Source: Acutalibacteraceae bacterium
GTDB lineage: Bacteria > Bacillota > Clostridia > Oscillospirales > Acutalibacteraceae
NCBI GenBank assembly: GCA_045578845.1
Contig: JAZNLA010000061.1
Span: 12,581 to 76,580 of the forward strand
Direction: 5' to 3'
DNA length: 64,000 nt
A model generated the notes under the pieces. The model ran no database searches, was not told the origin of the DNA, and saw only the letters and a program-made list of their open reading frames with translations. Below are positions 5,209 to 38,661 of this stretch, one piece after another (positions within the stretch are counted from its first letter, which is position 1; every line of letters begins with the position of its first letter). The position numbers and the translations under genes were made by a program.

Positions 5209-5486
5209 TTATAAATTTCCTTTCTTTTTTACTAAAAACTACGGTTGCGGCCCCATTAAAACTCGTTCTTAGACGTAATATAAAGCAAGACTCATCGGCA
5301 GCGAAAACCATATAGTTATCCACTTAAAATAATAGCACATTTTAATAAATTTTTCAAGGAAAACAAACGCAAAAAACGATAAAATTTTCCACAAATTTTA
5401 AGGCAATAATTGTGCAACCTTTCGGCACTATGTAAACCCTAACAAAAGTTGCGTTTTTGTTGTTGCAACAAGTGACGAAAATATAA
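5209..5486. promoter_or_regulatory. oriC, dnaA-upstream half plus the dnaA promoter region
   Basis: TTATCCACT at 5316-5324 and TTTTCCACA at 5385-5393 (one mismatch each to TTATCCACA) in an AT-rich non-coding stretch directly upstream of dnaA. Confidence 0.65.
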
Positions 5487-5488
5487 AA

Positions 5489-5524
5489 ACATCACCTATT
5501 TAAAAAGTGATGTTTTATATTTTA
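5489..5524. terminator. Weak AU-rich hairpin with T-rich tail
   Basis: aacatcac (5489-5496) pairs with gtgatgtt (5508-5515) across an 11-nt loop, with A/T runs on both sides. It could end the transcript from the MBL gene side. Confidence 0.35.
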
Positions 5525-5536
5525 GATATTATGGAT

Positions 5537-5705
5537 TGCCTCGCCTTCGGCTCACAATGAAAGCCTCCTGCTTGTCATGTTGAGTGTAGCCGAAGCGTCG
5601 GAAATATTCCTTGGCTTTGCTCGGAATGACAGTGAAAAAGGAATGATACAACCGCTTTACTCGTTGAGGTAGTAGGGTGACCTGCAGTCGCCCGAGGGTA
5701 TCTGC
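5537..5705. repeat. Cluster of 3-4 degenerate arms of the palindromic GTCAYYCYGAGCG-AGCCGAAGG / CTCGGAATGAC repeat family (copy C)
   Basis: Arms: cctcgccttcggctcacaatgaaag, gtcatgttgagtgtagccgaagcgtc, ccttggctttgctcggaatgac, and a weaker ggtgacctgcagtcgcccgagggtatc. Same family as 17506-17622, 18421-18537 and 38436-38535. Track ORF 5529-5744 is read across it. Confidence 0.7.
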
Positions 5706-5724
5706 CATCTGTATTAAAAATAAT

Positions 5725-7341
5725 CTAATCTTTCCATTTTTCAATTATAGACCTTATTTGAGAGGTGAGGCGGGCATTATCTTTATTAGGCCGACCTTGT
5801 CTTAATTTTACAATATCAAGCAGTTTTTCGGCCTCCAAAACCATATTTTTATAAATCTTTTCTGCCCTTGAGTCGACAGCCGATTTGTTCTTTGCGGGGA
5901 CAAATTTGCCTTCGGTCAGCAAGGTTGCTTTACCGTTGATTAAATTATATTCACTTCCGCTGAATGGTGCTACTGCCTCAAAACCCAAACCTATCAGGGT
6001 GTTTTTGAAATCTTCGCAAGATTCGTCGTCACCGTGATTTACGAAAATTTTTTGAGGTTTAACACTAAAACCGTCAATCCAACGAAGCAGTCCGTCGCGG
6101 TCGGCGTGACCGCTTGTGCCGTGAAGTGAGGCAATTTCTGCATTAACAGTAACATCTTCACCGAACAGCGTAACCGAGGGACTGCCGTTTAAAAGACGTC
6201 TTCCGAGTGAGCCTTCGGCTTGGTAGCCGACAAAAAGCACCGTACAACTGTCTTTCCAGAGATTATGCTTTAGGTGGTGCCTTATTCTGCCCGCCTCACA
6301 CATTCCGCTTGCCGAAATAATAACCTTAGGTGTCGGGTCCTCGTTTATAAGTTTAGATTCGTCGGAAGTTTGGGTTATTTTTATGCTGTCAAACCAAATG
6401 GGGTTAATGCCTTTTTTGAGAAGTGCCAAGGTTTCTTCGTCAAAACAAATTTGGTTGCACTGCATAAAAATTGCGGTTGCCTCGGCTGCCAAAGGACTGT
6501 CGACATAAACAGGAAAACGGTCATGTCCCTTTATTAAGCCTTCGTTTTTAATTTCTCTTATGGCGTAAAGCATTTCCTGTGTTCTGCCGACCGCAAATGA
6601 CGGGATTATAACATTACCGCCCCTATCAAATGTGCGTTGCAAAATGTCGGCTAATTCTTTTTTTGTATCTTTTATTTCGCCCGAATGAAGTCGGTTGCCG
6701 TATGTGGACTCTATTACCAAATAATCGGTTTGGTCGACAAATTTCGGGTCGCAGATAATACGCTGACCGCTGTTACCCACGTCACCGCTGAAAACAATTT
6801 TTTTAGAGGTGCCGTTTTCTTCCAGCCATAGTTCAATACAAGCCGAGCCCAAAAGGTGGCCGATGTCGGTAAACCGCACCGAAACACCTTCTGCCACCAT
6901 AATTTTGTCGCCGTAGTCACATCTGCGAAAGAGTGATAATACACCGACTGCGTCTTCTATAGTGTAGGTCGGCTCGACAATATCACCGCCTGCACGTTCG
7001 GACTTTTTAGACCTCCATTTAGCCTCAGTTTCCTGAATGTGGGCAGAGTCGCGAAGCATAATGTTACATAAATCGCAGGTGACGTCGGTAGCGTAAACCG
7101 TACCGCTGAAACCGTCCTTGTAAAGTTTAGGTATCATGCCCGAATGGTCGATATGAGCGTGGGTGAGGAAAACCGCCTCGATAAGAGAGGGGGATATGGG
7201 AAGTTCGATATTTTGAAAAACATCTCTGCCCTGTTCCATACCGCAGTCGACAAGGAAGTATCTGCCACAGACTTCCAAAAGCGTGCAACTGCCTGTAACT
7301 TCATGAGTAGCACCGATAAAACAAATTTTCATAAATTCCAC
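5725..7341 (-). CDS. MBL-fold metallo-hydrolase with beta-CASP / RNA-specificity domain (RNase J/CPSF-like)
   Basis: 538 aa. HAHIDHSG metallo-beta-lactamase motif near the N-terminus. Length and C-terminal region fit beta-CASP nucleases. Confidence 0.85.
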   Translation of the reverse strand: MEFMKICFIGATHEVTGSCTLLEVCGRYFLVDCGMEQGRDVFQNIELPISPSLIEAVFLTHAHIDHSGMIPKLYKDGFSGTVYATDVTCDLCNIMLRDSAHIQETEAKWRSKKSERAGGDIVEPTYTIEDAVGVLSLFRRCDYGDKIMVAEGVSVRFTDIGHLLGSACIELWLEENGTSKKIVFSGDVGNSGQRIICDPKFVDQTDYLVIESTYGNRLHSGEIKDTKKELADILQRTFDRGGNVIIPSFAVGRTQEMLYAIREIKNEGLIKGHDRFPVYVDSPLAAEATAIFMQCNQICFDEETLALLKKGINPIWFDSIKITQTSDESKLINEDPTPKVIISASGMCEAGRIRHHLKHNLWKDSCTVLFVGYQAEGSLGRRLLNGSPSVTLFGEDVTVNAEIASLHGTSGHADRDGLLRWIDGFSVKPQKIFVNHGDDESCEDFKNTLIGLGFEAVAPFSGSEYNLINGKATLLTEGKFVPAKNKSAVDSRAEKIYKNMVLEAEKLLDIVKLRQGRPNKDNARLTSQIRSIIEKWKD

Positions 7342-7468
7342 CTCTGTTATTCTATTTTTGGTTGTGCCGAGTTGTAATACAAAATTGTTTTGTAAGCCTT
7401 CCGTAACGGCTCTTTTTATGCAAGGGAGGCTTCATGGGGACTTTGGCAAAGTGGGCATTATTTACTTT

Positions 7469-7497
7469 AATATACCATTTTACATTACATTTTTCAA
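7469..7497 (-). promoter_or_regulatory. Sigma-A-type promoter for the MBL gene
   Basis: Minus strand reads TTGAAA, 17 nt, TATATT, with TGg immediately upstream of the -10 (extended -10). Confidence 0.5.
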
Positions 7498-7524
7498 GTA
7501 TAACCAAATCATACAACAAAACAA

Positions 7525-7550
7525 AAACCGAAGTCATAGGACTTCGGTTT
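7525..7550 (-). terminator. Intrinsic terminator of the thioesterase transcript
   Basis: aaaccgaagtc / gacttcggttt stem overlapping the stop codon. On the minus strand it is followed by TTTTTGTTTTG. Confidence 0.7.
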
Positions 7551-8292
7551 TAATTTCTATTTCGGCGGTAAAGCAAGGGGTGTCCCCTACTGTGCCGACT
7601 GCTTTGTATGTGTTTTCCGTCTTTTCGCAGGAAAGATTTATTGTGTCAAGTTCCTTTGCTTCGTTTAAAAAGTTGATTTCAAACGATTTTAATTTATTTT
7701 TATGTGTGTCGGGCGGCAAAAGGTCAAACACAATATCTGCATAGACTGTATTGTTAAGGTGGTGGTTGTAATCCAAATCGGAATAACGCACAGTGCGTTC
7801 CGAGGTAAAATCAGCATTTATAATACGATTTAGTTTTTTAGGGTATTCGCACTCGTTTTCAAGGTCATAATTATAAAGAAAACAGTCGAAAACGGCAACG
7901 TCTTTAGGTCTTACAACCGAACGGTCGCTCAGTTTTATTGCTGCAACCTCCGCCTTGCTTTGGGTTAAAATCTCACCGTCGTGGGATAAAAGCAGATAGT
8001 TTCGCGTAAACCTTACGCCTTTGAGTTGACTGCACCAGGTTCTTACCGTAACCTTTTCTTCCGCTTTGGGAAGGTTTATAATTTCAACCTTGAGTTTTGT
8101 GAAAATAAACGCCAAATCGTGGTCGTTACGAAGAGTTTCCGATGTTACACCGAACGTTGTTATGTGTTTTTCGCCTATTTCTTGGTGCAGTCTCAGAAGT
8201 GCCGAGATTTTGAGCCGATTTTCGCAGTCAACATCAAAACACGGCACCGTAACTTGTAGTTCGTAGGCGGTGTTATCAAGTATCGCACCCAT
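7534..8292 (-). CDS. Acyl-ACP thioesterase
   Basis: 252 aa. Double hot-dog length and sequence pattern of the FatA/B-like bacterial acyl-ACP thioesterase family. Start overlaps the serS stop by 1 nt. Confidence 0.8.
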   Translation of the reverse strand: MGAILDNTAYELQVTVPCFDVDCENRLKISALLRLHQEIGEKHITTFGVTSETLRNDHDLAFIFTKLKVEIINLPKAEEKVTVRTWCSQLKGVRFTRNYLLLSHDGEILTQSKAEVAAIKLSDRSVVRPKDVAVFDCFLYNYDLENECEYPKKLNRIINADFTSERTVRYSDLDYNHHLNNTVYADIVFDLLPPDTHKNKLKSFEINFLNEAKELDTINLSCEKTENTYKAVGTVGDTPCFTAEIEIKTEVL

Positions 8293-9575
8293 TATTTTTT
8301 AACGATTTTTTCCATACCGCCCATATAAGGACGGAGTGCTTCGGGGATTTTAATACTGCCGTCTTCTTGTAAATTGTTTTCGAGGAAAGCAATCAACATT
8401 CTGGGCGGTGCAACGACGGTGTTATTAAGTGTGTGTGCAAAATAGTTGCCGTTTTTGGACTTGACGCGGATTTTAAGACGGCGGGCTTGGGCGTCGGTTA
8501 GGTTAGAACAGGAGCCGACCTCGAAATATTTTTTCTGCCTCGGTGACCAAGCCTCAACGTCAATCGATTTTACCTTGAGGTCGGCGAGGTCGCCCGAACA
8601 ACACTCTAATGTTCTTACTGGGATATCGAGTGTGCGGAATAAATCAACTGTGTTTTGCCACAGTTTATGGAACCACATAGCCGAGTCTTCCGGCTTGCAG
8701 ACTACTATCATTTCTTGTTTTTCAAACTGGTGAATTCTGTAGACACCTCGTTCTTCGATGCCGTGGGCACCCTTTTCTTTGCGGAAGCAGGGCGAATAAC
8801 TGGTTAAGGTGTAGGGCAGTTTTTCTTCAGGTGTTATTGTGTCGATAAATTTACCTATCATACTGTGTTCAGATGTGCCGATAAGGTAGAGGTCCTCGCC
8901 TTCGATTTTATACATCATGGCGTCCATTTCGGCAAAACTCATAACGCCGGTTACAACATCGGAACGAATCATAAACGGCGGTACGCAGTAGGTAAAACCG
9001 CGGTCTATCATAAAGTCGCGGGCATAGGAAATAACGGCAGAGTGAAGCCTTGCGATGTCACCCATTAAATAGTAAAAACCGTTACCTGCAACCTTTCTTG
9101 CACCGTCAAGGTCAATACCGTCGAATTTTTCCATAATTTCGGTGTGGTAAGGAATGGGAAATTCGGGAACAACCGGCTCGCCGTAACGTTTGACTTCAAC
9201 ATTTTCGCTGTCGTCTTTGCCTATAGGCACCGACGGGTCTATGATATTGGGAATGGTCATCATGACCTTTAAAAGTTTTTCTTCAAGTTCGTTTTCTAAA
9301 ACTTCAAGTTCTGCAAGCCTTGAAGCAAACTCGGTCACTTTTTTCTTAGCCTCTTCGGCTTCCGCTTTTTGACCTTTAGCCATAAAACCGCCGATTTGCT
9401 TGGAAATGGCATTTCGCTCGGCACGAAGAGCGTCGGCCTCACGTTGAGCCTCGCGTTTTTTTACATCTAATTCGATAGCCTCGTCAACAAGAGGAAGTTT
9501 GCTGTCTTGGAACTTGTTTTTGATATTTTGTTTTACAATTTCGGGATTTTCTCTTACGAATTTAATGTCTAACAT
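8292..9575 (-). CDS. serS: Serine--tRNA ligase
   Basis: 427 aa. N-terminal MLDIKFVRENPE and coiled-coil arm, then a class II core (YRIHQFEKQE, GSCSN). Confidence 0.96.
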   Translation of the reverse strand: MLDIKFVRENPEIVKQNIKNKFQDSKLPLVDEAIELDVKKREAQREADALRAERNAISKQIGGFMAKGQKAEAEEAKKKVTEFASRLAELEVLENELEEKLLKVMMTIPNIIDPSVPIGKDDSENVEVKRYGEPVVPEFPIPYHTEIMEKFDGIDLDGARKVAGNGFYYLMGDIARLHSAVISYARDFMIDRGFTYCVPPFMIRSDVVTGVMSFAEMDAMMYKIEGEDLYLIGTSEHSMIGKFIDTITPEEKLPYTLTSYSPCFRKEKGAHGIEERGVYRIHQFEKQEMIVVCKPEDSAMWFHKLWQNTVDLFRTLDIPVRTLECCSGDLADLKVKSIDVEAWSPRQKKYFEVGSCSNLTDAQARRLKIRVKSKNGNYFAHTLNNTVVAPPRMLIAFLENNLQEDGSIKIPEALRPYMGGMEKIVKK

Positions 9576-9620
9576 TTTATAAACTCCTTATCAAAAAACA
9601 CAATATATAGTGTTTAATAA

Positions 9621-9836
9621 TTACTTTTGTACAAAATATGCCAAAATTATGCCGATAGCAACGGCTATGCCGAGCCAAAGGATTAAGTTTTCAAAAATTA
9701 TGCCTGCTACTACACCTATAACCGTAAAAAGCGGAATTACGGCAGTGGGTTTTGCTTTTTTTAAAACGCCTACCGTTCTTTTGATTTTGGTCATACTGCG
9801 TTTTATTGTCTTTTTGGCTTTTGTATTTTTACTCAT
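9621..9836 (-). CDS. Small membrane protein (basic N-terminus, two hydrophobic segments)
   Basis: Internal ATG of track ORF 9621-9947: MSKNTKAKKTIKRSMTKIKRTVGVLKKAKPTAVIPLFTVIGVVAGIIFENLILWLGIAVAIGIILAYFVQK. The ATG lies within ATGAGTAA, overlapping the parB stop by 8 nt (translational coupling). No family recognised. Confidence 0.5.
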   Translation of the reverse strand: MSKNTKAKKTIKRSMTKIKRTVGVLKKAKPTAVIPLFTVIGVVAGIIFENLILWLGIAVAIGIILAYFVQK

Positions 9837-10680
9837 CGCGGTTGCCTGCGAGCAGTGATGCCAAATGGAACAGGTCGTCGTCACTGAAAAATTCAATCTG
9901 CAGCGTGCCCGATTTTCCGTTGCCGGAAATCTTGACTTTTCTGCCAATCTGCGACGCTAAAGCCGCCTCAGTTTCGACGTACAGTTTGTTTTTAAGTTTC
10001 GGCCGTTTCATTTGTATGCCGACCTTTTGCTGTTTTGAGATGTTTTCAATATCCCTCACCGATGCACCGCTTTTAGCCAGCATAAACGCTTCGGCACGGA
10101 TGTTTCCTTCAGGTATACCGAGTAGTGCTCTTGCGTGGCCTGAGGTTATTTCACCGTTTTTCAGTGCTTCGGTTTCAGCGTCGGTCAACGATAAAAGTCT
10201 TAGTGCGTTTGCCACCGCCGGGCGGGATTTACCAACCCTTTGTGACACCTGTTCTTGGGTGAGCCCAAAATTATCCATGAGTGTTTTGTAGCCTGCCGCC
10301 TCTTCAACGGGGTTTAAATCTTCGCGTTGCAGGTTTTCTATAAGGGCGATTTCCATGGTTTCCTTTTCATCTATTTCGCGGATTACTACGGGTACCTTGT
10401 CAAGACCTGCAAGTCGGCTTGCACGCCAACGGCGTTCGCCTGCTACTATTTGGTATGTACCGCCGTTTAAAGGACGGACAAGTAACGGCTGAATTAGTCC
10501 GTGTTCTTTGATACTGTCGGACAGTTCTTTCAAAGCGGCATCGTCAAACGCTTTTCGCGGCTGGTCGCGATTTGGGACTATTTGTGATAGCCTCAGTTCC
10601 GAAACCTGTCGGGTTTCAATATCGTTTTCTGTGAAGAGTGAATCAAAACCTCTGCCCAGCCCACCTTTTTTTGCAGCCAT
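9829..10680 (-). CDS. parB: Chromosome partitioning protein ParB/Spo0J
   Basis: 283 aa. GLGRGFDSLF N-terminus, ParB box IVAGERRWRA, HTH region. Confidence 0.95.
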   Translation of the reverse strand: MAAKKGGLGRGFDSLFTENDIETRQVSELRLSQIVPNRDQPRKAFDDAALKELSDSIKEHGLIQPLLVRPLNGGTYQIVAGERRWRASRLAGLDKVPVVIREIDEKETMEIALIENLQREDLNPVEEAAGYKTLMDNFGLTQEQVSQRVGKSRPAVANALRLLSLTDAETEALKNGEITSGHARALLGIPEGNIRAEAFMLAKSGASVRDIENISKQQKVGIQMKRPKLKNKLYVETEAALASQIGRKVKISGNGKSGTLQIEFFSDDDLFHLASLLAGNRDE

Positions 10681-10683
10681 ATT

Positions 10684-11463
10684 CTATTCTCCTTTATTCT
10701 TGCGGTTTCGCTTTATAAACTCTTTTGCCAAATCGTTGTAACCGTCGGCACCTTTGCTGCGGCGGTCATAATACTGTATCGGCATGCCGTAACTCGGTGC
10801 CTCGGAAAGCCTTACTCCGCGTGGAATGGTGGTTTTATAGAGTTCCTTTGAAAAATACTTTTTAAGTTCATTTACCACTTGTGCGGTGAGGTTTAGCCTG
10901 CCGTCATACATGGTCAGCACAACGCCTTCCAAATAAATGTCAGGGTTGTAACTCACTTTAACCTGTTTTACGGTGGCGATAAGTTGCGAAAGGCCTTCGA
11001 GTGCGTAGTATTCGCATTGTACGGGCACTAAAAACGCGTCGGCGGCGGTCAGTGCGTTGACCGTTATGAGTCCTAAGGACGGCGGACAATCTATAAATAT
11101 GTAGTCAAATTCGTCTTTTATAAGAGCCAAAGCCGTTTTTAACTGATTTTCTCGCGATTTTATGTCGATTAGTTCGATTTCGGCACCCGCAAGGCCGATG
11201 TTTGCGGGTATTACCGAAACGTTTTTAAACTCGGTTTTTATTACGGCATCTTTGGCGTGGGCACCTGTGGTAAAAAGGTCGTAACTCGAAACGGTTACAT
11301 CACGCTTGTTTATACCGTATCCGCTGGTTGAGTTGCCCTGCGGGTCGGCATCAATAAGCAGTACCTTTTTACCTAAAATTCCTACACCTGCCGCAAGGTT
11401 GACGGCGGTTGTGGTTTTACCGACACCGCCCTTTTGATTTATAATGGCAATGATTTTACCCAT
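10684..11463 (-). CDS. parA: Chromosome partitioning ATPase ParA/Soj
   Basis: 259 aa. Deviant Walker A NQKGGVGKTTT. 3-nt gap to parB. Confidence 0.95.
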   Translation of the reverse strand: MGKIIAIINQKGGVGKTTTAVNLAAGVGILGKKVLLIDADPQGNSTSGYGINKRDVTVSSYDLFTTGAHAKDAVIKTEFKNVSVIPANIGLAGAEIELIDIKSRENQLKTALALIKDEFDYIFIDCPPSLGLITVNALTAADAFLVPVQCEYYALEGLSQLIATVKQVKVSYNPDIYLEGVVLTMYDGRLNLTAQVVNELKKYFSKELYKTTIPRGVRLSEAPSYGMPIQYYDRRSKGADGYNDLAKEFIKRNRKNKGE

Positions 11464-11507
11464 TTTTGCCTCCGTTTAAGGGTTGTGGTTAAATATTATC
11501 TCAAACC

Positions 11508-11535
11508 ATTATACCCAACCTTGCGGCTTTTGTAA
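11508..11535 (-). promoter_or_regulatory. Sigma-A-type promoter for parA
   Basis: Minus strand reads TTACAA, 16 nt, TATAAT, about 45 nt upstream of the parA ATG. Confidence 0.5.
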
Positions 11536-11557
11536 AGAGGAAACGGTCAAATTTTAA

Positions 11558-11573
11558 TATTTCACGTGAAACA
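11558..11573. promoter_or_regulatory. parS: parS site (ParB/Spo0J binding)
   Basis: TATTTCACGTGAAACA has one mismatch to the Firmicutes parS consensus TGTTNCACGTGAAACA. It lies between the spoVAE stop and the parA promoter. Confidence 0.8.
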
Positions 11574-11575
11574 TT

Positions 11576-11941
11576 TTACTTAATTCGGGGTTTTGAAAAA
11601 AGTGATACAAGCAGACCGAAAACTATGGCGGCGGTTATTCCTGCGGCTGTGGCGGTGATTCCGCCAAGCAATGCACCGATAAGCCCGTTTTCGGCAACCG
11701 CCTTTTCGACGCCCTTGGCAAGCGAATAACCGAAACCTGTCAGCGGAACTGTGGCACCTGCACCGGCAAACCTGACAATCGGCTCGTAAATGCCGATAGC
11801 GGTCAACAAAACGCCCGAAACAACATAGGCAACAAGTATTCTTGCGGGTGTTAGTTTGGTTTTATCAATTAAAATTTGGCCGATAACACACAGTATCCCG
11901 CCAACCCAAAAGGCATTCAGACAGTCAATAAATATTTCCAT
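11576..11941 (-). CDS. spoVAE: Stage V sporulation protein AE (SpoVAEb-type)
   Basis: 121 aa. Collinear with B. subtilis SpoVAEb as I recall it (GGxxCVIGQxLxD...LTPA...YEPxVxFAGAGATVPxTGFG...AAIVFG). Confidence 0.88.
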   Translation of the reverse strand: MEIFIDCLNAFWVGGILCVIGQILIDKTKLTPARILVAYVVSGVLLTAIGIYEPIVRFAGAGATVPLTGFGYSLAKGVEKAVAENGLIGALLGGITATAAGITAAIVFGLLVSLFSKPRIK

Positions 11942-11955
11942 AAAATCTATCCTTT

Positions 11956-11971
11956 CGTTTCACGTGAAACA
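11956..11971. promoter_or_regulatory. parS: parS site (ParB/Spo0J binding)
   Basis: CGTTTCACGTGAAACA has one mismatch to the consensus and a 14-bp perfect palindrome core. It lies in the 32-nt gap between spoVAF and spoVAE. Confidence 0.8.
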
Positions 11972-11973
11972 AT

Positions 11974-13395: not shown

Positions 13396-13511
13396 CCTTT
13401 CATGTTTTCAAAACCTATTTTTACCGTAAACGGACCGTTTATTCTGAAATTGGGTTAAAGACGGCAGGATTTTACATATATATAATGTATATTTTATTTG
13501 TGGGGGATAAA

Positions 13512-15020: not shown

Positions 15021-15026
15021 TGTATA

Positions 15027-15989: not shown

Positions 15990-15992
15990 AGG

Positions 15993-16021
15993 TTGTAAAT
16001 AAAAAAATTCTATGGTATAAT
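15993..16021 (+). promoter_or_regulatory. Sigma-A-type promoter for ricT
   Basis: TTGTAA, 17 nt, TATAAT, with TGg extended -10. Confidence 0.5.
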
Positions 16022-16054
16022 CAGTTGTTAAGTAAATTATAAACGGAGATAAAA

Positions 16055-17550: not shown

Positions 17551-17622
17551 CCTGTCACCCTGAGCGTAGCCGAAGGGTCTTATAAAAAGATTCCTCGACT
17601 TCGCTCGGAATGTCAATGTGAA
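17506..17622. repeat. 117-nt palindromic repeat element, copy A
   Basis: aatcccgcagggcgaacaggaaagcccctgcg...gtcaccctgagcgtagccgaagggtc-ttataaaaa-gattcctcgacttcgctcggaatgtcaatgtgaa. 3 differences in 117 nt from copy B (hand count). Two internal hairpins. Confidence 0.9.
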
Positions 17623-17625
17623 AAC

Positions 17626-17656: not shown

Positions 17657-17659
17657 GTG

Positions 17660-29543: not shown

Positions 29544-29630
29544 ATGTATTGTTCCTTTCAAAAAATTTAAAACTTAATAAATCAATTATACTATATGAGT
29601 TTTAAAAAATCAACCGAAGTAGGCCTAAGG

Positions 29631-30221
29631 TTACAAACCTGTGATATTTTTGTCTATAGGTTCTAAGAAACTTTGTGCAAATTCATTCAAAAATATGTTG
29701 GCAGAAGGCAGGTTTAAAGCCTTAATAGACTGTAAAGTTGACCGTTCCGCCTCGGAAAATTCGCGGTTGCCCAAGGTGATTTCGTCACGGCACTTTATAA
29801 GTGCCGAAATTTTGTCGGCAGCCTTGATTATTTTTTTTAGGTGCGGGTCGTCTTCTTTGAAAATCGACTGAAACTCAGGGCGTAAATCGTCGGGTAACAG
29901 ACTTAACAAACGGTCGTCTGCCGCATTTTCAAGGCTTTTATATGCCGACTTTATATCGTCATTGTAGTATTTGACGGGTGTCGGCAAATCGCCCGTAATG
30001 ATTTCCGACGCATCGTGGAACATGGCAAGCAAAGCCACCCTTTCGGCGTTTATGTTTCCGCCGAGTCTTGTGTTTTCAATGACCGCTAAGGCGTGGGCGA
30101 TAAACGCGGTTTCGAGGGTGTGTTCGCTTAAAGTTTCTTTGCGGGTGTTTCGCATTAAAGCCCAACGGTCAATGTACTTCATGCGAAATAACATCGCGTA
30201 AAAATGGCAGGTGTTTTCCAT
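29631..30221 (-). CDS. HD-domain 5'-deoxynucleotidase (YfbR-like)
   Basis: 196 aa. SEHT...HDASE HD-domain motifs. Confidence 0.8.
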   Translation of the reverse strand: MENTCHFYAMLFRMKYIDRWALMRNTRKETLSEHTLETAFIAHALAVIENTRLGGNINAERVALLAMFHDASEIITGDLPTPVKYYNDDIKSAYKSLENAADDRLLSLLPDDLRPEFQSIFKEDDPHLKKIIKAADKISALIKCRDEITLGNREFSEAERSTLQSIKALNLPSANIFLNEFAQSFLEPIDKNITGL

Positions 30222-30224
30222 ATT

Positions 30225-31610: not shown

Positions 31611-31611
31611 A

Positions 31612-32166
31612 TCAGTTACCGTCCTTATATAAAGAGTTGTATATTTTTATGGTTTTTTCTATTCGTTTAACGTATTCTTTGGTTTCGGAGAACACTATAT
31701 CCTCTTGTTCCAATTTACCGTCGTCGGCAATCCATTTATTTACGTTTCCGAGTCCCGCGTTGTAAGCGGCGATTACGGTTTTTTGGTCGCCGTCAAAATA
31801 CTCGATTAAATATTTAAGGTACCGTATACCGTATTTTATATTGATTTCAGGGTCGGTTGCGTATTCATTAAAGGCCTTGTCTTCGCCTAAAATTTTTGCC
31901 ATATCTAAAAATGTTTCTTCGGTCAGTTGCATTAATCCGACGGCATTGGCTGAGGATTTTGCATTACTGTCAAAGTTACTTTCGCATTTTATAACCGAAA
32001 AACATAAAGTTGTAGGAACGTCGAATTCCTCAGAATATTTCGTAACAAAATCGGCATAGTCTTTGGGATACAATGCCTTCATTATAGTATTATATCCAAA
32101 AATCACGAAAATTATAAGCAGTACTGCCGCTAAGATACCGCAAATTGCCTTTTTAAAAATTTTCAT
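31612..32166 (-). CDS. Lytic transglycosylase (SLT domain), membrane-anchored
   Basis: 184 aa. N-terminal TM. Catalytic motif CESNFD...GLMQL. Confidence 0.88.
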   Translation of the reverse strand: MKIFKKAICGILAAVLLIIFVIFGYNTIMKALYPKDYADFVTKYSEEFDVPTTLCFSVIKCESNFDSNAKSSANAVGLMQLTEETFLDMAKILGEDKAFNEYATDPEINIKYGIRYLKYLIEYFDGDQKTVIAAYNAGLGNVNKWIADDGKLEQEDIVFSETKEYVKRIEKTIKIYNSLYKDGN

Positions 32167-32765
32167 TTGCCGTATCCTTTCATAAGCGTTTCGAGTATTG
32201 TTTCGATTTTTAATGTGAAATCTTGCAAATTCCCGTTGTTTTCGACAATATAGTCGGTCTTTTCATAGAATTGGTCGGGTTTTCCTGCGTCAAGCCTTAT
32301 TTCGGCATCTGTGTCACTCAAATTATCGCGGGAAATTATCCGTTTTTTTCTAAGATTTCGGTCACAAAGTACCGCAACCGTTACGTCGCAAACCGAGTCA
32401 ATACCGCTTTCAAACAGCGTCGGTGCATCTAAAATAAGCAGTTTTACGCCGTTTTCCTTTTCGGTTGCTATCAGTTGCTTTATTTTTTCTGCAATTACGG
32501 GTAACATTATCGAATTTAAAATTTCGGTTTTTTCGCTTGTCGCAAATGCCTTTTCGGCGAGTTTTTTTCGCAGAAGTTCACCGTTTTGGTCTAAAATATC
32601 GTCACCGAAAGCAGTTTTGAGTGTGTTTAAAACCGCACTTTCTTTTGCGGTTACTTCTCTTGCCACTTTGTCGCAGTCAATAGTTACGGCACCAAAACTT
32701 TCGGCTATAGGAGCGATAGACGATTTTCCGCTGCCCGTGGGGCCTGTAAGTCCTAAAATAATCAC
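32163..32765 (-). CDS. coaE: Dephospho-CoA kinase
   Basis: 200 aa. P-loop GLTGPTGSGKSS. Confidence 0.92.
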   Translation of the reverse strand: MIILGLTGPTGSGKSSIAPIAESFGAVTIDCDKVAREVTAKESAVLNTLKTAFGDDILDQNGELLRKKLAEKAFATSEKTEILNSIMLPVIAEKIKQLIATEKENGVKLLILDAPTLFESGIDSVCDVTVAVLCDRNLRKKRIISRDNLSDTDAEIRLDAGKPDQFYEKTDYIVENNGNLQDFTLKIETILETLMKGYGK

Positions 32766-33793
32766 AGTTTTATCACCTCAAACGCGGCGGCACGGATAAG
32801 TCGGTTATAAACCGCTAAACCAACGCCGTTTTTTTCGGGCACCCTTGCAAAACAGACCTTGCAATTTTTACTGTCAAGTTCACGCAACGCATCAAAAAGC
32901 ACTGCGGCTTGGGCGGATTGGTCAGACCTTTCGCCAAATGATACGGTTGGAACTGTCAGTCCCTCTTCTTCGCCCGAAAAAACGAGGGCGAAGGTGCCGT
33001 TTGTTGCATTTTGGTTTACATAAATCTTAAATTTTTCCAAATCGCCGTCAAGCATAACCACCTTGGCTTTGGGCGAGTAGTGTTTATACTTCATACCGGG
33101 TGAGGCAACAGGTTTGCCTTTTTCGGGCTCGGATAATACCGCTTTGTCAACCTCAATGTCGGGTAAAACTTCGCGTAACTGTTCTAAAGTCACACCGCCC
33201 GGGCGTAGCAGTTTGGGCGGATTGGTGCAAAGCGTTATAACGGTTGACTCTACGCCGACTTCTGACCTGTCCGATACAATTACGGCGTCAATTTTTCCGT
33301 CTAAATCCAAAAGCACATGGTCGGCTGTGGTGGGACTGGGCGAGCCCGATTTATTTGCCGACGGTGCTGCCAACGGCAGACCGCTCAAACGTATAAGTTC
33401 TCTTGCTATTTTATTGGAGGGCATACGAACGGCCACCGTATCAAGTCCCGCACTGACCGAAGACGGCACCTTGTCACTTCGTTTTAACACCATAGTAAAG
33501 GGGCCGGGCCAAAATTTTTCGGCAAGTTCAAGTGCTGTTGAGGGCAAATTCTCAACCACTTCTTTTAACATTTCGAGGTCTGACACATGAACTATCAAGG
33601 GATTATCCTGCGGACGTCCCTTTGCTTTAAAAATGTTTTCGACTGCGGTTTGGTTATAGGTACTTGCCGCAAGTCCGTACACCGTTTCGGTGGGCATGGC
33701 GACAAGACCGCCGTCTTGCAAAATTTTTGCGGCGGTTTTTAAATTTTCACAGTCTTTTTTTGTGTCAAATACCGAAAGTCTAAGGGTTTTCAA
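32762..33793 (-). CDS. tsaC: L-threonylcarbamoyladenylate synthase (Sua5/TsaC long form)
   Basis: 343 aa. YrdC domain (PTETVYGLAA...KGRP..NPLIVH) plus Sua5 C-terminal domain. Confidence 0.92.
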   Translation of the reverse strand: MKTLRLSVFDTKKDCENLKTAAKILQDGGLVAMPTETVYGLAASTYNQTAVENIFKAKGRPQDNPLIVHVSDLEMLKEVVENLPSTALELAEKFWPGPFTMVLKRSDKVPSSVSAGLDTVAVRMPSNKIARELIRLSGLPLAAPSANKSGSPSPTTADHVLLDLDGKIDAVIVSDRSEVGVESTVITLCTNPPKLLRPGGVTLEQLREVLPDIEVDKAVLSEPEKGKPVASPGMKYKHYSPKAKVVMLDGDLEKFKIYVNQNATNGTFALVFSGEEEGLTVPTVSFGERSDQSAQAAVLFDALRELDSKNCKVCFARVPEKNGVGLAVYNRLIRAAAFEVIKL

Positions 33794-34864
33794 TTAAGCG
33801 TCTTCCTCTTGTTTTAACATTTGGGTGCGGTAGTGGGTGATAAGCGGGTCTATAATATCGTCAAGGTCACCGTTCAGCACCGAGTCTAATTTATAAAGGG
33901 TCAGTCCTATTCGGTGGTCGGTCACTCTGCCCTGAGGGAAGTTATAGGTGCGAATTCTTTCCGAACGGTCGCCTGTGCCGACCTGTGATTTACGGTCGCT
34001 CGCCAAGGCGGCGTTTTGTTCGGCAACCATTTGCTCATACAGTCTTGAACGCAGCACCTTCATGGCTTTGTCCTTGTTTTTGTACTGACTGCGTTCGTCT
34101 TGACATTCAACCACAAGTCCCGTAGGCAGGTGGGTGATACGTATTGCCGATTCGGTTTTGTTAACGTGTTGACCGCCTGCACCGCCTGCACGGTAGGTGT
34201 CAATCTGCAAATCGGCAGGATTTATCTGGAGTTCGACTTCTTCTGCTTCGGGTAGTACCGCAACCGTTACGGTTGAGGTGTGTATTCTGCCGCTCGTTTC
34301 GGTTTCGGGTACACGCTGAACGCGGTGAACACCGCTTTCGTATTTAAGTCTTGAGTAGGCACCCTGCCCCTCAATCATAAAACTTACTTCTTTGTATCCG
34401 CCAAGTTCGGTTTCGTTCGCACCGACAGGTTCAATATGCCAACGGCGGGACTCGGCGTACATTCCGTACATTCTCGAAAGTTCGCCTGCAAAAAGTGCCG
34501 CTTCTTCGCCGCCTGCACCGCCGCGGATTTCGACAATTACATTTCGGTCGTCGTTGGGGTCGCGTGGCAAAAGCAAAATTTTAAGTTGGTCCGAAAGTGC
34601 GGAGATATTTTCCTTTAAACTGCCGAGTTCTTCTTCGGCAAGTTGTTTCATTTCTTTGTCAAGACCGCCTGTTTCCAATAGTGACAGGGTGTCTTGGAGT
34701 TCCTTTTTTGCCGATTTATATTCGCGGTATTTTTCAACAATAGGCGACAGAGTGCTGTGCTCTTTCATAAGTTCGGTAAAGGTTTCGCCCGTATTTGAGG
34801 GGTCGGACATTCTTGTACTTATTTCTTCGAATTTTAATTCAACTGCTTCTAATTTATCAAACAT
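33794..34864 (-). CDS. prfA: Peptide chain release factor 1
   Basis: 356 aa. GGQ motif ([12 protein letters not shown]) and PET-type tripeptide (RVPETE). Confidence 0.96.
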
Positions 34865-35060
34865 TATTCTGCTCTTTTCCCGCTTGTTTTTCTAGTTTTT
34901 TAATGAATTTTTCTATTTTTGCTCTCGGGGTCATAACCTCATGTCCGCATTTTTCACACTTAATTTTAAAATCTATACCGACACGCAAAACCAAAAACAT
35001 GTTACAGCCACAAGGATGTGGTTTTTTGAGTTGCAGTCGGTCGCCGATCGAAATATCCAT
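34857..35060 (-). CDS. DUF951 family small protein
   Basis: 67 aa. KKPHPCG...CEKCGH pattern of DUF951. Overlaps the prfA start by 8 nt. Confidence 0.75.
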
Positions 35061-35089
35061 GGAAAAATCCCCCTTTTGAAAAATTTACT

Positions 35090-35129
35090 TAAAAAAGGTA
35101 TGGCAACCCCATAAAAAGCCGCCATACCT
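35090..35129 (-). terminator. Intrinsic terminator after jag
   Basis: Minus strand reads aggtatggc, 16 nt, gccatacct, TTTTTT. Confidence 0.7.
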
Positions 35130-35137
35130 CAAAAAAT

Positions 35138-36103
35138 CTATTTACCGAGTTTGCCGTAAAGTTTTGTGCCGTCAACCTGTTTTGGTTTTTCGGACTCAAT
35201 ACTGTCAGGTGCGGGCGAATCGGTTGTTCTGGCGGCTTTACCGCTGAAACCCTGTCTTGCTCTGCCTTGACGGTTATCTCTGCCGCCTCTACCGGACATA
35301 GGACGGGGTGACTTGCCGTCGGGACAAATAACAACGCGTCTTGAGGCACCGTCGCCAACAGATGTAGAGTAAACACCCTCTATACTTTGAACGGCAGTGT
35401 GGATAATTCTACGCTCGTACGGATTCATAGGCTCAAGTGAACGGGTATGGCCGGTGCGAAGTACCTGACCGGCAGTTCTTTTGGCAAGCGACTCTAAGGT
35501 CGATTCTCTTCTTTCGCGGTAGTTGCCGATGTCGATAACAATGCGGTAGTAACCGCCGCCGTTTTCGTTGGCAACAAGCGAGGCCAAATACTGTAAAGCG
35601 TCTAAGGTTTCGCCGCGGCGACCTATAATAACGCCCAATTTATCATTGCCCAAAAGGGTGATTTTCGAGCCGCCTTCTATTTCCGAAATAGTTGCACCGT
35701 TTACGTCACAGTCTAACTTTGCCAAAATGCCCGAAATGTATTTAAAGGCCTTGCCTGCAGGGGAGTTTTCGTCAACGCTTTCGGCGGGAACACCGACTGC
35801 TGCGGGCTCTTTTGCTTGGTCTTTAACGGTTTCTTTAACTGCAGGGGAAGGGGTTTTTGCAGGTGCGGTTTTTTTGCCATGTTTTGCGTTGCGGTCTTTA
35901 CGGGGCTTAACCTCATCGGGACCTTCAACATAAGCACGTACTTTGGCTTCACTGCCGCCGAAAAGTCCCAAAACTTTTTTCTTTGCTTCGGCAAGAATTT
36001 CAAAGTTTACGTCTTCTTCAATATTTGCACCTAATTTATTTATTGCGTCTTCCTGTGCCTCTGTAACGGTGGCACCGACGCCGATTGCTTCTTTAATAAT
36101 CAA
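35138..36103 (-). CDS. khpB: Jag/KhpB RNA-binding protein (Jag_N, KH, R3H) with RG-rich C-terminal tail
   Basis: 321 aa. KH GVIIGRRGETLDALQYL, R3H ...LEPMNPYERRIIH. Follows yidC. Confidence 0.9.
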   Translation of the reverse strand: MIIKEAIGVGATVTEAQEDAINKLGANIEEDVNFEILAEAKKKVLGLFGGSEAKVRAYVEGPDEVKPRKDRNAKHGKKTAPAKTPSPAVKETVKDQAKEPAAVGVPAESVDENSPAGKAFKYISGILAKLDCDVNGATISEIEGGSKITLLGNDKLGVIIGRRGETLDALQYLASLVANENGGGYYRIVIDIGNYRERRESTLESLAKRTAGQVLRTGHTRSLEPMNPYERRIIHTAVQSIEGVYSTSVGDGASRRVVICPDGKSPRPMSGRGGRDNRQGRARQGFSGKAARTTDSPAPDSIESEKPKQVDGTKLYGKLGK

Positions 36104-36123
36104 CGTATTTTTCTCCTTAACGG

Positions 36124-37293
36124 TTATTTCTCTTCTGTGTCAGGTTGCGGTGTGGTGCAGGCAGCAATTCTTGCTTTTTCTTGCTTGTCGCGGTCGATTA
36201 CCGTTTTAGCCTGCTCTTTGGCTATGATTACATTCGGTCCGTATACAATCTGCGAAAGTATCTGAAGTCCTCCCGAAATTACATTGGAACACGCCCAATA
36301 GAAACCGACAGCACCGGGAACGGTGAACGCAATGTAAAGCGAAAACAGCGGCATCATGAGCATCATTACAGCCATATTGGGTGCATCGGGATTGATTTTC
36401 TTTTGCATAATCATAGAGGCAATACTTGAAAGCATTGCAGTTGCAAAGGATAAAATAGGTATCAGCCAAATCGCCTCGAATTTGGTTAAATTCCAAGAGA
36501 AGCGGGGCGTTTCGGTTAAATCAAGACCGAAAAGACCGAAGTTGGTTTTTCGGACATCTTCTAAATCTCCGCCGCTTTTTTGGAACTGATAAGCGATAAC
36601 GGGGTATTTAGACTGTCCGTTCTCGTCGGCTGATAAGAACTCTACCAATTCAACCTCTCTGACCACTTTTGATTTGTCAGTGGCTTTGCGGATGATTTCT
36701 TCGACTGAGCCTTTTTGAACATTATCCTTTTTCATTGCGTTAGCATTTTCGACAATGATAAGTTTAGCAAAATATTCGTTGGCGTCTACACCGTATTCTT
36801 TGGAAAGTTCAATAACAGTATCAGATGTCATAACACTCTGGAGTCCTGCGGCATTCCAATCAATGGTGCTGTCGTTGCTTTCGGCAACCCTTGTGTAAGA
36901 AACCCAGTTTTTAGCGGAATTGATAGCGTCAGTATCAACCATTTGAACGAATTTAAGCGGACTTACAACCGCCCAATAAACGCCCATAAGCACTACCATT
37001 CTTATTATCATCGGCAGACAACCGCCCGACATTGAAACCTTCTCTTTTGCGTAGAGTTCGTTCATAGCCTGACTGTATTTCTGCTTGTCATTACCGTATT
37101 TTTTCTTTAAAGCGTCAAGTTTCGGCTTTAATTTTGCCTGCTTTGCGGTAGATTTTTGGGATTTTAAGGTAAGCGGTAACATGCAAAGGTTTACAAGTAA
37201 AGTAAACGCAACAACCGAAGCGGCAAAGTTGTTGCCGAGTAGGTCGCTGAGCCTGCCCAAAATCCATCCCATAGCGTAACTGATATAATCCAT
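36124..37293 (-). CDS. yidC: Membrane protein insertase YidC (with ~150-aa insertion)
   Basis: 389 aa. Conserved KQAKLKPKLDALKKKYGND...ELYAKEKVSMSGGCLPMI and C-terminal TM bundle. A large extra segment lies between TM2 and the FGL..DLTE motif. Confidence 0.9.
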   Translation of the reverse strand: MDYISYAMGWILGRLSDLLGNNFAASVVAFTLLVNLCMLPLTLKSQKSTAKQAKLKPKLDALKKKYGNDKQKYSQAMNELYAKEKVSMSGGCLPMIIRMVVLMGVYWAVVSPLKFVQMVDTDAINSAKNWVSYTRVAESNDSTIDWNAAGLQSVMTSDTVIELSKEYGVDANEYFAKLIIVENANAMKKDNVQKGSVEEIIRKATDKSKVVREVELVEFLSADENGQSKYPVIAYQFQKSGGDLEDVRKTNFGLFGLDLTETPRFSWNLTKFEAIWLIPILSFATAMLSSIASMIMQKKINPDAPNMAVMMLMMPLFSLYIAFTVPGAVGFYWACSNVISGGLQILSQIVYGPNVIIAKEQAKTVIDRDKQEKARIAACTTPQPDTEEK

Positions 37294-37302
37294 AGCAAAT
37301 CC

Positions 37303-37593
37303 TTACTTCCGACCGTTAGCCTTGTCGGATAAAAATAATGTGTCCTTTGTGGCGACGGCGTGTTTTTTACGGCGTTCGCCCTTTGACGGTACGGGGTCGT
37401 AACCGCCCTTGCAAAACGGATTGCACCGCAAAATTCGCCAAACAGTAAGAAATAAACCGACTATGGCACCTCTTTCGGCGAAGGCTTCAACCGAATATTC
37501 AGAGCAGGTCGGTGTGAACCGACAGCACGGTGCTTTTAAAGGCGACAAAAATTTGCGGTAAAACTTTACAAGTGCAATAAATATGTGTTTCAT
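37303..37593 (-). CDS. yidD: Membrane protein insertion efficiency factor YidD
   Basis: 96 aa. YRKFLSP...[10 protein letters not shown] signature. Confidence 0.92.
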
Positions 37594-37937
37594 TGTGTGT
37601 TTTCGGGGATTAACCCTAATTTTTCAAGGTGTTCTTTCATAACGCGGGCAATTTCGGTGCTTTTTGTATACGGGGTTTTGCCGCGGGCGACAAAAACAAT
37701 ATCGGCACCGCCGCAGTCTAAATACGGGAAACATTCCCTTGCCGCTGCCGCAATTACCCGTCTTGCCCGATTTCTCATGACGGCACAACCGACTTTTTTG
37801 CCGGAAGTAATACCGTAGCGAATAACACCCAGACGGTTGTTTTGTACATAAGTAACAAGCACAGGGCTAATCATACTACGCCCTCTGCCGTAAAGACGGC
37901 GGAAATCCTTATTAAGATTTAATTTTTCGGATTTCAA
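37590..37937 (-). CDS. rnpA: Ribonuclease P protein component
   Basis: 115 aa. Basic protein with the RNR motif region (AVMRNRARR). rpmH-rnpA-yidD-yidC synteny. Confidence 0.92.
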
Positions 37938-38004
37938 TTAAGCAGTCCTCTCTTTAAAACGTCCTATATATTATAATGTATAGGGCAAAATTAACTCACC
38001 ATTC

Positions 38005-38031
38005 GAAAAAAGGTCACATAAGGTGACCTTT
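38005..38031 (-). terminator. Hairpin plus T-run just after rpmH
   Basis: Minus strand reads aggtcac, cttat, gtgacct, TTTTTT. Possibly a partial terminator, since rnpA follows. Confidence 0.6.
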
Positions 38032-38033
38032 TC

Positions 38034-38168
38034 TCAGTAGGTAAGACTTTGTCTGCCTTTTGCTCTGCGGCGGGCAAGTACCTTGCGGCCGTTAGCGGTA
38101 GACATTCTCTTACGGAAACCGTGTTCCTTCATACGATGAAGTTTTTTAGGCTGATAAGTTCTTTTCAT
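38034..38168 (-). CDS. rpmH: 50S ribosomal protein L34
   Basis: Below the ORF-track size cutoff. My translation is [53 protein letters not shown] upstream. Confidence 0.95.
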
Positions 38169-38279
38169 GGTTACAAACCTCCTTTATTTTCGGTTGCGGT
38201 TATGTCGCGGGGGTTTAGACGGCGTAATATATAACACCCTTAAACGAGTATAGTTACAGACATAACCTATCAATTTAGG

Positions 38280-38309
38280 ATTATACCTCAAATAACCGTA
38301 TTCTGTCAA
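38280..38309 (-). promoter_or_regulatory. Consensus sigma-A promoter for rpmH
   Basis: Minus strand reads TTGACA, 18 nt, TATAAT. About 105-nt leader. Confidence 0.65.
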
Positions 38310-38435
38310 TAAATTTTTGATTTGTTAACATAAATTTTTTACCCTTGGTCCGCAAAACACATTATGTAGTGGGGAAAAATTTCACAAGCACAACGAAAAT
38401 GAGCAAGGGCGGTACGGCTTGCCCGCAAATATCTC

Positions 38436-38535
38436 TTAGGGTTGTCATTCCGAGCGAAGCCGAGAAATCTCTACTGTCTACAAATCGGGGACGGTGTTTA
38501 CAACGTTTTGCGAAATCCCCCTGTCTTGCCGAACG
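38436..38535. repeat. Degenerate copy D of the palindromic repeat family
   Basis: gtcattccgagcgaagccgagaaatc arm (opposite orientation to the ...gctcggaatgac arms of copies A-C), followed by cgttttgcgaaatccccctgtcttgccgaacgg, which resembles the cgttttgcaatctgacctgtcaccctgagcg part of copies A/B. Confidence 0.6.
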
Positions 38536-38597
38536 GTAATCCGCTTATTTGCACAAAAATAAAACTTTTTGCGATGGCAAAAAGCAGTAAGTTGTAA

Positions 38598-38626
38598 TTG
38601 ACTTTGGGTGTGATATAGGGTACAAT
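38598..38626 (+). promoter_or_regulatory. Sigma-A-type promoter for the pyrH operon
   Basis: TTGACT, 17 nt, TACAAT, 35 nt upstream of the pyrH ATG. Confidence 0.6.
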
Positions 38627-38661
38627 GTAAATGAATATAAATTTAACGGAGTTGTGAAATT

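Follow-up and report, generated by a model that had tools for sequence, protein, structure and literature searches.

The window analysed here, a 64,000-nt stretch covering positions 12581-76580 of contig C61 (108 kb; assembly G000), contains the dnaA operon of an uncultured gut member of the Clostridia, family Acutalibacteraceae, and next to it a 33-kb block in which most genes are transcribed toward the replication origin (oriC). Positions are those of the window, and negative positions lie to its left. The minus-strand genes of this block are truly head-on to replication and have a long-term lagging-strand composition, and its plus-strand genes are leading-type. We regard the block as a genuine, fixed and old head-on architecture beside oriC that arose stepwise through several events, a reading to which we assign a probability of about 0.7. 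The host assembly is a metagenome-assembled genome (MAG) of 1.58 Mb in 71 contigs, rated 98% complete, and the public records nearest to it are MAGs from gut and rumen that carry the label Acutalibacteraceae or Oscillospiraceae.

Strand composition and the position of the origin

Genes were mapped from an open reading frame (ORF) listing together with NCBIfam scans. The dnaA-dnaN-recF-gyrB-gyrA operon (the A-block) lies on the minus strand, with dnaA at 3913-5208 (TIGR00362, 434 bits), dnaN at 2555-3661 (TIGR00663), recF and the 3′ part of gyrB to the left of dnaN within the window, and gyrA at C61:9039-11603, outside the window. To the right of dnaA, beyond an intergenic region of 516 nt (5209-5724), the block begins with genes for a beta-CASP RNase and a thioesterase-like protein followed by serS, parB, parA, spoVAE and spoVAF (5725-13395, minus; family matches), all directed head-on toward oriC; together with spoVB these form a conserved unit, the B-block. 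Next come spoVB, holB and ricT (13485-16903, plus; family matches), co-directional with the rightward fork, then a PBP2-type transpeptidase, prs and a PHP-like hydrolase (18893-22524, minus; family matches), all head-on, and thyX, tmk, DJ-1, MTHFS, mltG and a TrhP-like U32 peptidase (22689-27788, plus), again co-directional. The block ends with a head-on run (27828-38168, minus; family matches) made up of an STK-like protein, a 5′-deoxynucleotidase and a second conserved unit, M18-LT-coaE-tsaC-prfA-jag-yidC-rnpA-rpmH (the F-block). Its last gene, rpmH (38034-38168, minus, identified from its translation), is thus 33 kb from dnaA and on the same strand. When ORFs of ≥90 aa are counted, coding sequence in the block amounts to 20,658 nt on the minus strand and 8,868 nt on the plus strand (∼70:30), close to the sums of ∼22 and 9 kb made by hand in the initial annotation. 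Past a second intergenic region of 493 nt (38169-38661), the run pyrH-frr-uppS-cdsA-dxr-rseP-ispG-polC-GNAT-luxS-pth-mfd...lgt (38662-60505) is uniformly plus and co-directional, and the 22 kb of one-strand coding reported earlier for this side was likewise confirmed.

Head-on transcription is supported by a contrast between minus- and plus-strand genes within the block itself, a comparison that needs no assumption about coding-strand effects. Coding-strand GC skew averaged 0.009 in the minus genes and 0.140 in the plus genes (p = 5e-5); at third codon positions (GC3) the values were −0.262 and +0.011 (p = 1.4e-4), and at fourfold-degenerate sites (GC4) −0.337 and −0.106 (p = 0.016). By this contrast the top strand is G-rich, and hence leading, along the whole block. 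For genome-wide references we used 13 strongly biased contigs, in which genes on the majority strand had a GC4 skew of −0.192 and those on the minority strand one of −0.382. The pooled minus genes of the block (−0.349 ± 0.041) came close to the minority-strand value, as is typical of lagging-strand genes, and the pooled plus genes at 38.6-60.5 kb (−0.211) resembled the majority-strand reference. Among the smaller sets, GC3 skew was −0.31 and −0.32 for the PBP2-prs-PHP set, −0.079 for the thyX-U32 set, and +0.26, +0.17 and −0.20 for spoVB, holB and ricT, respectively. The initial annotation had singled out rpmH, rnpA, yidC, prfA, prs, serS and parAB as essential or highly expressed genes facing the fork, and their composition is indeed lagging-type. 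A model in which the skew of the block was reversed fitted worse than one without any switch. This argues against a recent inversion and against a mis-oriented assembly, since minus genes flipped in either way would still carry a leading-strand composition, which they do not.

To place the origin, per-gene top-strand skew was modelled by change-point regression as a function of gene strand and of a replication-side term whose switch point could move. With whole-gene GC skew, the origin-type switch that fitted best fell at 3662, the dnaN/dnaA boundary, or at 5209 (residual sum of squares (RSS) 200-210 vs 274 with no switch; F = 32), and for GC3 the candidates −3707, 5209 and 3662 were equivalent. 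With the switch at 38.4 kb the RSS rose to 352 for GC (vs 200) and to 1805 for GC3 (vs 1336), a poorer fit than that of the model lacking a switch, in keeping with the earlier assignment of the origin to dnaA rather than to the vicinity of 38.3 kb. Composition on the other side of the dnaA operon points the same way. A plus-strand operon, rimP-nusA-(small ORF)-infB-rbfA-nrnA-truB-ribF-ppa (C61:415-8872; window −12165 to −3708), converges on gyrA, and its nusA-ribF genes are lagging-type here (all-site skew +0.027; GC3 −0.303) and leading-type as orthologs in the sister species G010 (+0.108 and −0.005). With lagging-type plus genes to its left and lagging-type minus genes to its right, the origin is bracketed to −3.7 to +5.7 kb, that is, to the dnaA operon. 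We conclude that oriC is at the dnaA operon and not at 38.3 kb. Both flanks of this operon point inward, with no outward gene-strand switch at oriC, and the effect is not one-sided as had been proposed: the rimP-nusA-infB-rbfA-truB-ribF-ppa operon left of gyrA is also head-on.

Sequence elements around dnaA fit this location. DnaA boxes with at most one mismatch flank the gene, as the initial annotation had it, at 3709 and 3833 in the dnaA-dnaN spacer and at 5316 and 5385 upstream of dnaA, where ∼0.23 boxes would be expected by chance in the two spacers combined (genome density 0.30/kb). At the same stringency the rpmH-pyrH spacer (38.2-38.66 kb) contains none. The dnaA-dnaN spacer (3662-3912) also has a very AT-rich stretch at 3740-3820 and is a candidate for the unwinding half of a bipartite oriC. 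Two parS-like sites (11558-11573 and 11956-11971) bracket spoVAE just upstream of parA, within ∼7 kb of the dnaA operon; no other site in the assembly comes within one mismatch of TGTTNCACGTGNAACA.

A low degree of co-orientation is not in itself unusual in this genome. Genome-wide co-orientation is ∼70%, which is an upper estimate as the sign was fitted to each contig separately, and other 33-kb windows with ≤35% co-orientation occur on contigs C4, C42 and C45. The block thus sits in the genome's low co-orientation tail and is not unique there; its content and its location at the origin set it apart.

Gene order and skew in relatives

Orthologs of both conserved units were compared in relatives. 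Pooled coding-strand GC3 skew of the B-block (spoVAF...thioesterase) is −0.259 in this genome, −0.195 to −0.208 in three relatives whose copy is also predicted to be head-on (G001, G016 and G032), and −0.073 to +0.277 in five whose copy points away from dnaA (G004, G006, G011, G018 and G015). The skew of this block therefore follows its orientation relative to dnaA across 9 species, which supports dnaA-linked origins throughout the genus. For the F-block (rnpA...M18), pooled skew here is +0.012 at all sites and −0.286 at GC3, against +0.07 to +0.16 and −0.10 to +0.03 in 10 of 10 relatives, so that it is lagging-type in this genome only (1 of 11; z ∼−4 to −5.5, calculated from those values). 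In all 10 relatives the genes flanking the F-block on its own strand had less negative GC3 than those on the opposite strand, a pattern that implies leading-strand placement there and that is reversed in this genome. We conclude that rpmH-M18 is genuinely head-on, that this state is derived and old enough for the skew to have re-equilibrated fully, and that its lagging-strand placement is most likely specific to the long branch of this species. In a tree of 8 proteins G010 is the sister species, and the branches of ∼0.42-0.44 substitutions per site leave ample time for such re-equilibration. Exact-protein look-ups with DnaA and RnpA returned no assembly of the same species, and the closest DnaA in a metagenome scan was 74% identical.

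Outside the genus, the canonical divergent rpmH|dnaA arrangement is found in G022, G026, G027 and G029, which represent four other families of the order and in which jag...noc-parA-parB-serS points outward. As these sister families keep the canonical layout, the arrangement here is derived. Within the genus, jag or rpmH was on the dnaA contig in 0 of 23 relatives, one of which (G004) has 90 kb of contig upstream of dnaA. The absence of dnaA-rpmH linkage implies that the split predates this species, and the ancestral layout that a flip of the block was said to restore is hypothetical for this lineage. The claim that the canonical gene order is preserved in the block stands only loosely: mnmE, mnmG, rsmG and noc are missing from it, and jag is separated from parA by 24 kb of genes that are unrelated and differ in orientation.

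What relatives conserve are the parts of the block and not the whole. In every relative examined the A-block is intact. Conservation in the genus extends to the rpmH-M18 block, with different neighbours in each species examined, and pyrH was beside rpmH in none of 10 relatives. The A- and B-blocks occur in at least four configurations, the B-block being upstream and divergent in G004, G006, G011 and G018, downstream of gyrA and convergent in G001, G032 and G016, downstream with the other polarity in G015, and upstream and tandem in this genome. In G010, nusA...ribF leads directly into thyX...U32 on one strand, and in G033 prs-PHP-thyX...U32 is turned round with respect to PBP2. No relative examined had the 33 kb as a single unit or as a flipped collinear copy; only sub-blocks were conserved. 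From this comparison of gene maps the 33 kb appears to be a mosaic of sub-blocks brought together by several events rather than one collinear inverted segment. An attempt to arrange the inversions implied by the genus maps into one sequence was abandoned in view of the four or more A/B configurations, the varied neighbours and the long branches.

Related arrangements are seen in other lineages. Outside the genus most Acutalibacteraceae-like loci lack rpmH beside dnaA, and in several noc-parA-parB-serS runs into dnaA. Two MAGs, G037 (contig C28) and G038 (contig C129), have rpmH-rnpA-yidC-jag...noc-parA-parB-serS-dnaA-dnaN-recF-gyrB-gyrA on one strand, and the skew of this block is below that in canonical genomes. 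Judged by gene order, such tandem arrays appear to be the clean form of the inversion proposed in the initial annotation, though in other lineages. Skew change points in G036-G038 were set aside, as opposite-strand genes are too few there to tell an effect of coding apart from one of replication. Between jag and noc, G038 also carries a group of three DnaA boxes within 150 nt (8.6-8.75 kb). Separately, in 10 genus relatives (loci L003, L004, L006, L008, L010-L014 and L017) a conserved coding region points into dnaA and ends ∼250 nt upstream of it, which indicates that genes pointing into dnaA are common in the genus; this region is absent upstream of dnaA in G000, G001, G008, G010 and G016.

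Junctions, repeats and alternative histories

The two intergenic regions that bound the block look like functional intergenic regions and not like assembly joins, judging from predicted signals: a terminator precedes oriC at one, and the rpmH promoter at the other is conserved. In the left junction the order is the stop of the beta-CASP gene (5725), a repeat, a terminator, the DnaA boxes with the dnaA promoter, and dnaA. The intrinsic terminator predicted for the incoming beta-CASP gene is at 5516-5486 (minus), and the predicted dnaA promoter at 5357-5329 (minus) has a −35 TTGAAA and a TG-extended −10 TATTAT. This promoter and the DnaA box that overlaps it are conserved in 15 genus members, and sequence further upstream is not. 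In the right junction, a predicted consensus rpmH promoter (TTGACA-18-TATAAT; 38309-38280, minus) is followed outward by a repeat, a terminator-like hairpin (38585-38564, minus) and a predicted pyrH promoter (38598-38626, plus); the rpmH promoter with its leader TTGATAGGTTATGTC (38250-38310) is almost invariant in 11 species of the genus, this one and 10 relatives. A leader motif seemingly shared by dnaA and rpmH (TATATTACG...CCGCAACCG, equal spacing) was dismissed as chance, the alignment scoring no better than shuffles and its 9-mer occurring 84 times in the genome. The beta-CASP RNase at the left junction (5725-7341) had as its best NCBIfam models ‘type VII CRISPR-associated Cas14’ and archaeal aCPSF1, both far under their cut-offs (398 vs 800 bits and 296 vs 580), and its ortholog in G033 adjoins the M18 aminopeptidase instead of dnaA.

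Both junctions carry a member of a palindromic, REP-like repeat family with the core GTCATTCCGAGCGAAGTCGAGGAATC, often followed by an inverted partner. The elements span 5537-5705 and 38436-38535 and share a 21-nt core (5610-5630, minus; 38444-38464, plus) that is 19/21 identical in opposite orientation; similarity between the two copies stops at ∼21-25 nt, and the 5537-5705 locus holds arms of both orientations. The matching inverted arms noted in the initial annotation therefore exist, but they belong to a dispersed family of 15-17 copies in the 1.58-Mb assembly, with an enrichment on the 108-kb C61, which has 7 of them: at −3573 (C61:9007), 5610, 17594, 18509, 38444 and 73029 (C61:85609), plus a weak one. 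Within 3 mismatches of the core GTCATTCCGAGCGAAGTCGAG(GAATC) there are 15 copies, many followed by an inverted partner, ...CTTCGGCTACGCTCAGGGTGACA. The copies at 17594 and 18509 (17594-18529, minus) lie in an AT-rich region of small helix-turn-helix (HTH) modules between ricT and PBP2. In 845 kb from genus relatives the family hardly occurs, with stray copies in the thioesterase-gyrA gap of G032 and, in G001, ∼2.5 kb and ∼10 kb upstream of dnaA, the latter beside ricT. An Rfam scan of the window gave no family at the gathering score. Repeat copies are found in most long intergenic regions that are synteny junctions, a suggestive coincidence in a sample biased toward such regions, and recombination may have been mediated by the repeats. 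The inverted orientation of the two junction arms weighs little, because the family is dispersed and internally palindromic.

These observations bear on whether one inversion of 5.7-38.2 kb through the inverted repeats, perhaps recent or still switching, could account for the block. Such an event would explain the opposite-orientation cores (19/21 identical) in both intergenic regions, it would agree with an expansion of the repeat family in this lineage, given its near absence from the 845 kb of relatives, and undoing it would yield the canonical rpmH|dnaA divergence. However, the skew of the block has come to equilibrium in its present orientation and shows none of the reversal that a recent, simple inversion would leave: the reversed-skew model did worse than no switch, and the F-block and B-block are fully lagging-type. 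Moreover, the homology extends over only ∼21-25 nt of internally palindromic elements, further copies lie at −3573, 17594, 18509 and 73029, the un-flipped 33 kb is in no relative and G010 has none of the block's junctions. The idea that the two intergenic regions are the ends of one inverted segment fails likewise, as the neighbours of the sub-blocks differ in every species examined. We therefore consider a single inversion improbable. Still less probable is an assembly artefact in which C61 was mis-joined or mis-oriented at its repeat-bearing intergenic regions. The assembly is a short-read MAG in 71 contigs with a repeat at both junctions, and the G010 contig breaks 394 nt upstream of dnaA, but the repeat identity of ∼21-26 nt is shorter than the k-mers that assemblers typically use. 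In addition, composition fits the assembled orientation (wrongly flipped minus genes would look leading-type), the composition of the nusA flank by itself calls for an origin immediately to the right of that flank, and the layouts of terminator, promoters and DnaA boxes at the junctions are coherent. Nor does the GC step at 5.4 kb (0.33 to 0.43) betray a chimeric contig, a suspicion we rejected: it is the edge of a low-GC island limited to gyrB-dnaA (window ∼1-5400; GC 0.31-0.34 vs 0.43-0.44 in both flanks), and the dnaA loci of genus relatives show an equal drop of ∼8-10 points, which makes the step a genus-wide property of the dnaA operon.

An origin in the rpmH-pyrH spacer (38.2-38.66 kb), with the block and the dnaA operon co-directional and the boxes at dnaA serving only autoregulation, is about as hard to credit as an artefact. 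Gene orientation taken alone fits it best, with a divergent switch at rpmH and 70% of the block plus the dnaA operon co-directional, and the tandem rpmH...serS-dnaA arrays of G036-G038 could be read likewise. Against it stand the lack of DnaA boxes in that spacer, the poor fit of a skew switch at 38.4 kb, the lagging-type minus and leading-type plus genes of the block, and the F-block orthologs that are leading-type in 10 relatives and lagging-type here. A more serious competitor, which we nevertheless think unlikely, is that the origin moved and not the block, a ∼26-kb origin segment (gyrA...dnaA-oriC with the serS-parAB and prs blocks) having translocated into a once unbroken, co-oriented nusA-infB...ribF→thyX...U32 array; the nusA operon would thereby have become head-on, thyX-U32 would have stayed co-directional and the rpmH block would have arrived separately. 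In G010, nusA...ribF joins thyX...U32 on one strand with leading-type skew, and here the origin segment lies between ppa and thyX; the pattern of head-on and co-directional flanks is as predicted, the dnaA operon is a genus-conserved low-GC island whose neighbours vary between species, and repeat copies flank it at −3573 and 5610. Yet the PHP|thyX adjacency also occurs in G033, so the insertion boundary is not specific to this genome, the G010 arrangement may itself be derived, and equilibrated skew erases the direction of the event. As a translocation would lead to the same present-day state, it competes with the stepwise reading on history only.

Several observations weigh against an old, stepwise head-on architecture at a dnaA-linked origin. 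DnaA-box clusters are not confined to dnaA: 12 2-kb windows genome-wide have ≥4 boxes at ≤1 mismatch, and we rejected box clustering as a unique origin marker for this reason. The dnaA-gyrA genes themselves have lagging-type GC3 and GC4 skew. Origin-type skew switches also occur on C10 (∼38 kb) and C48 (∼12.5 kb), with F ∼22, and plus-strand genes at 64-95 kb (C61:76.6-108 kb) are lagging-like (GC4 −0.341) despite a plus-majority run. The assembly is a fragmented MAG of 71 contigs, and the order of events is not polarisable without close relatives, the tree requiring at least two changes of B-block state. Coding-strand skew of dnaA-gyrA is low or negative in canonical genomes as well, including the complete genome G027, and so seems intrinsic to those genes; the skew of the operon therefore cannot refine the origin position, and we discarded it as uninformative for placing the origin to the left or right of the operon. 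The 64-95 kb skew hints at another rearranged segment or a gene-specific codon effect. With the C10 and C48 switches and the lagging-like genes at 64-95 kb, the local skew history is noisy. A terminus-type skew change point was also seen on C70; the change points on C10, C48 and C70 could reflect more recent inversions, the terminus or chimeric contigs.

The stepwise reading can be put as a sequence of events. The chromosome would replicate bidirectionally from a bipartite oriC at the dnaA operon, formed by the dnaA-dnaN spacer and the region upstream of dnaA. The 33 kb to the right favours lagging-strand genes by ∼70:30, and at least 8.5 kb left of gyrA is also head-on. The canonical rpmH|oriC|dnaA linkage would have been lost before the radiation of the genus, after which origin-proximal inversions and translocations would have shuffled the sub-blocks (dnaA-gyrA; spoVB|spoVAF-parAB-serS; rpmH-M18; thyX-U32), differently in each species. 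The present arrangement would then have persisted until strand asymmetry at synonymous sites had re-equilibrated completely. The gene map, the bracketing of the origin, the head-on state of the genes, its age as measured against skew equilibration and the lack of conservation in relatives are all direct results of this analysis; the number and order of events are what we infer from them, and with a genome-wide co-orientation of only ∼70% selection against head-on essential genes may be weak in this lineage. A further step is doubtful and offered as speculation: that the lineage tolerates >25 kb of essential, highly expressed head-on operons on both sides of the origin through a low cost of replication-transcription conflict, perhaps tied to an exonuclease-less PolC or slow growth, and that species-specific repeats drive recurrent flipping or the low-GC dnaA-oriC cassette relocates.

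Comparison with known origin regions

Co-orientation of essential genes with replication is among the strongest rules of Bacillota genome organisation. The region described here is a natural, long-lived exception, in which core operons for translation, secretion, segregation and transcription factors have remained head-on beside oriC until their composition re-equilibrated. The origin region of the genus is very fluid, and several Acutalibacteraceae lineages show related arrangements. Such cases should be useful for gauging the strength of conflict-driven selection in slow-growing gut anaerobes, and they call for caution with oriC predictors that take the rpmH-dnaA landmark or gene-strand switches as a guide. 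We see in the region a rearrangement of a known kind, natural and at equilibrium, that reveals no new mechanism.

The obvious reference is the canonical Bacillota origin cluster (jag-yidC-rnpA-rpmH|oriC|dnaA-dnaN-recF-gyrB-gyrA), as in Bacillus subtilis. Shared with it are the intact dnaA-dnaN-recF-gyrB-gyrA array, DnaA boxes on both sides of dnaA (at a modest enrichment) with an AT-rich dnaA-dnaN spacer, and origin-proximal parAB with parS. In contrast, rpmH is here 33 kb away on the strand of dnaA instead of adjacent and divergent, there is no outward strand switch, and the block lacks mnmE, mnmG, rsmG and noc.

An experimental parallel is offered by inversions engineered in B. subtilis, both origin-proximal ones and ones spanning a quarter of the chromosome. 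Replication was reported to be moderately impeded across the inverted region with a small competitive disadvantage in minimal medium, and inversion of rRNA was the strongly obstructing case, lethal in rich medium (Srivatsan et al. 2010, PMC2797598). The likeness is a large origin-adjacent stretch made head-on, and the difference is that the case here is natural, fixed and skew-equilibrated and includes no rRNA operon. Among natural cases, per-gene GC skew has been used to trace inversions from co-directional to head-on (Merrikh & Merrikh 2018, PMC6220195), and strand bias has been linked to how often inversions occur, to inverted repeats and to the type of polymerase (Atre et al. 2024, PMC11040001). 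Our block resembles the inversions of these two studies in that head-on alleles have been kept over evolutionary time and inverted repeats are possible substrates. It differs from those traced by Merrikh & Merrikh in showing no recent-inversion skew signature and in that its head-on genes serve core translation, secretion and segregation (rpmH, rnpA, yidC, prfA, prs, serS, parAB and nusA-infB), not virulence or resistance.

Also comparable are the tandem rpmH...parAB-serS-dnaA MAGs (G037 and G038, and partly G036 and G039), in which the rpmH side is likewise on the strand of dnaA and points into it. The block of G037 and G038 is compact (∼14 kb) and uninterrupted, whereas here 24 kb of other genes are interspersed and mnmE, mnmG, rsmG and noc are gone.

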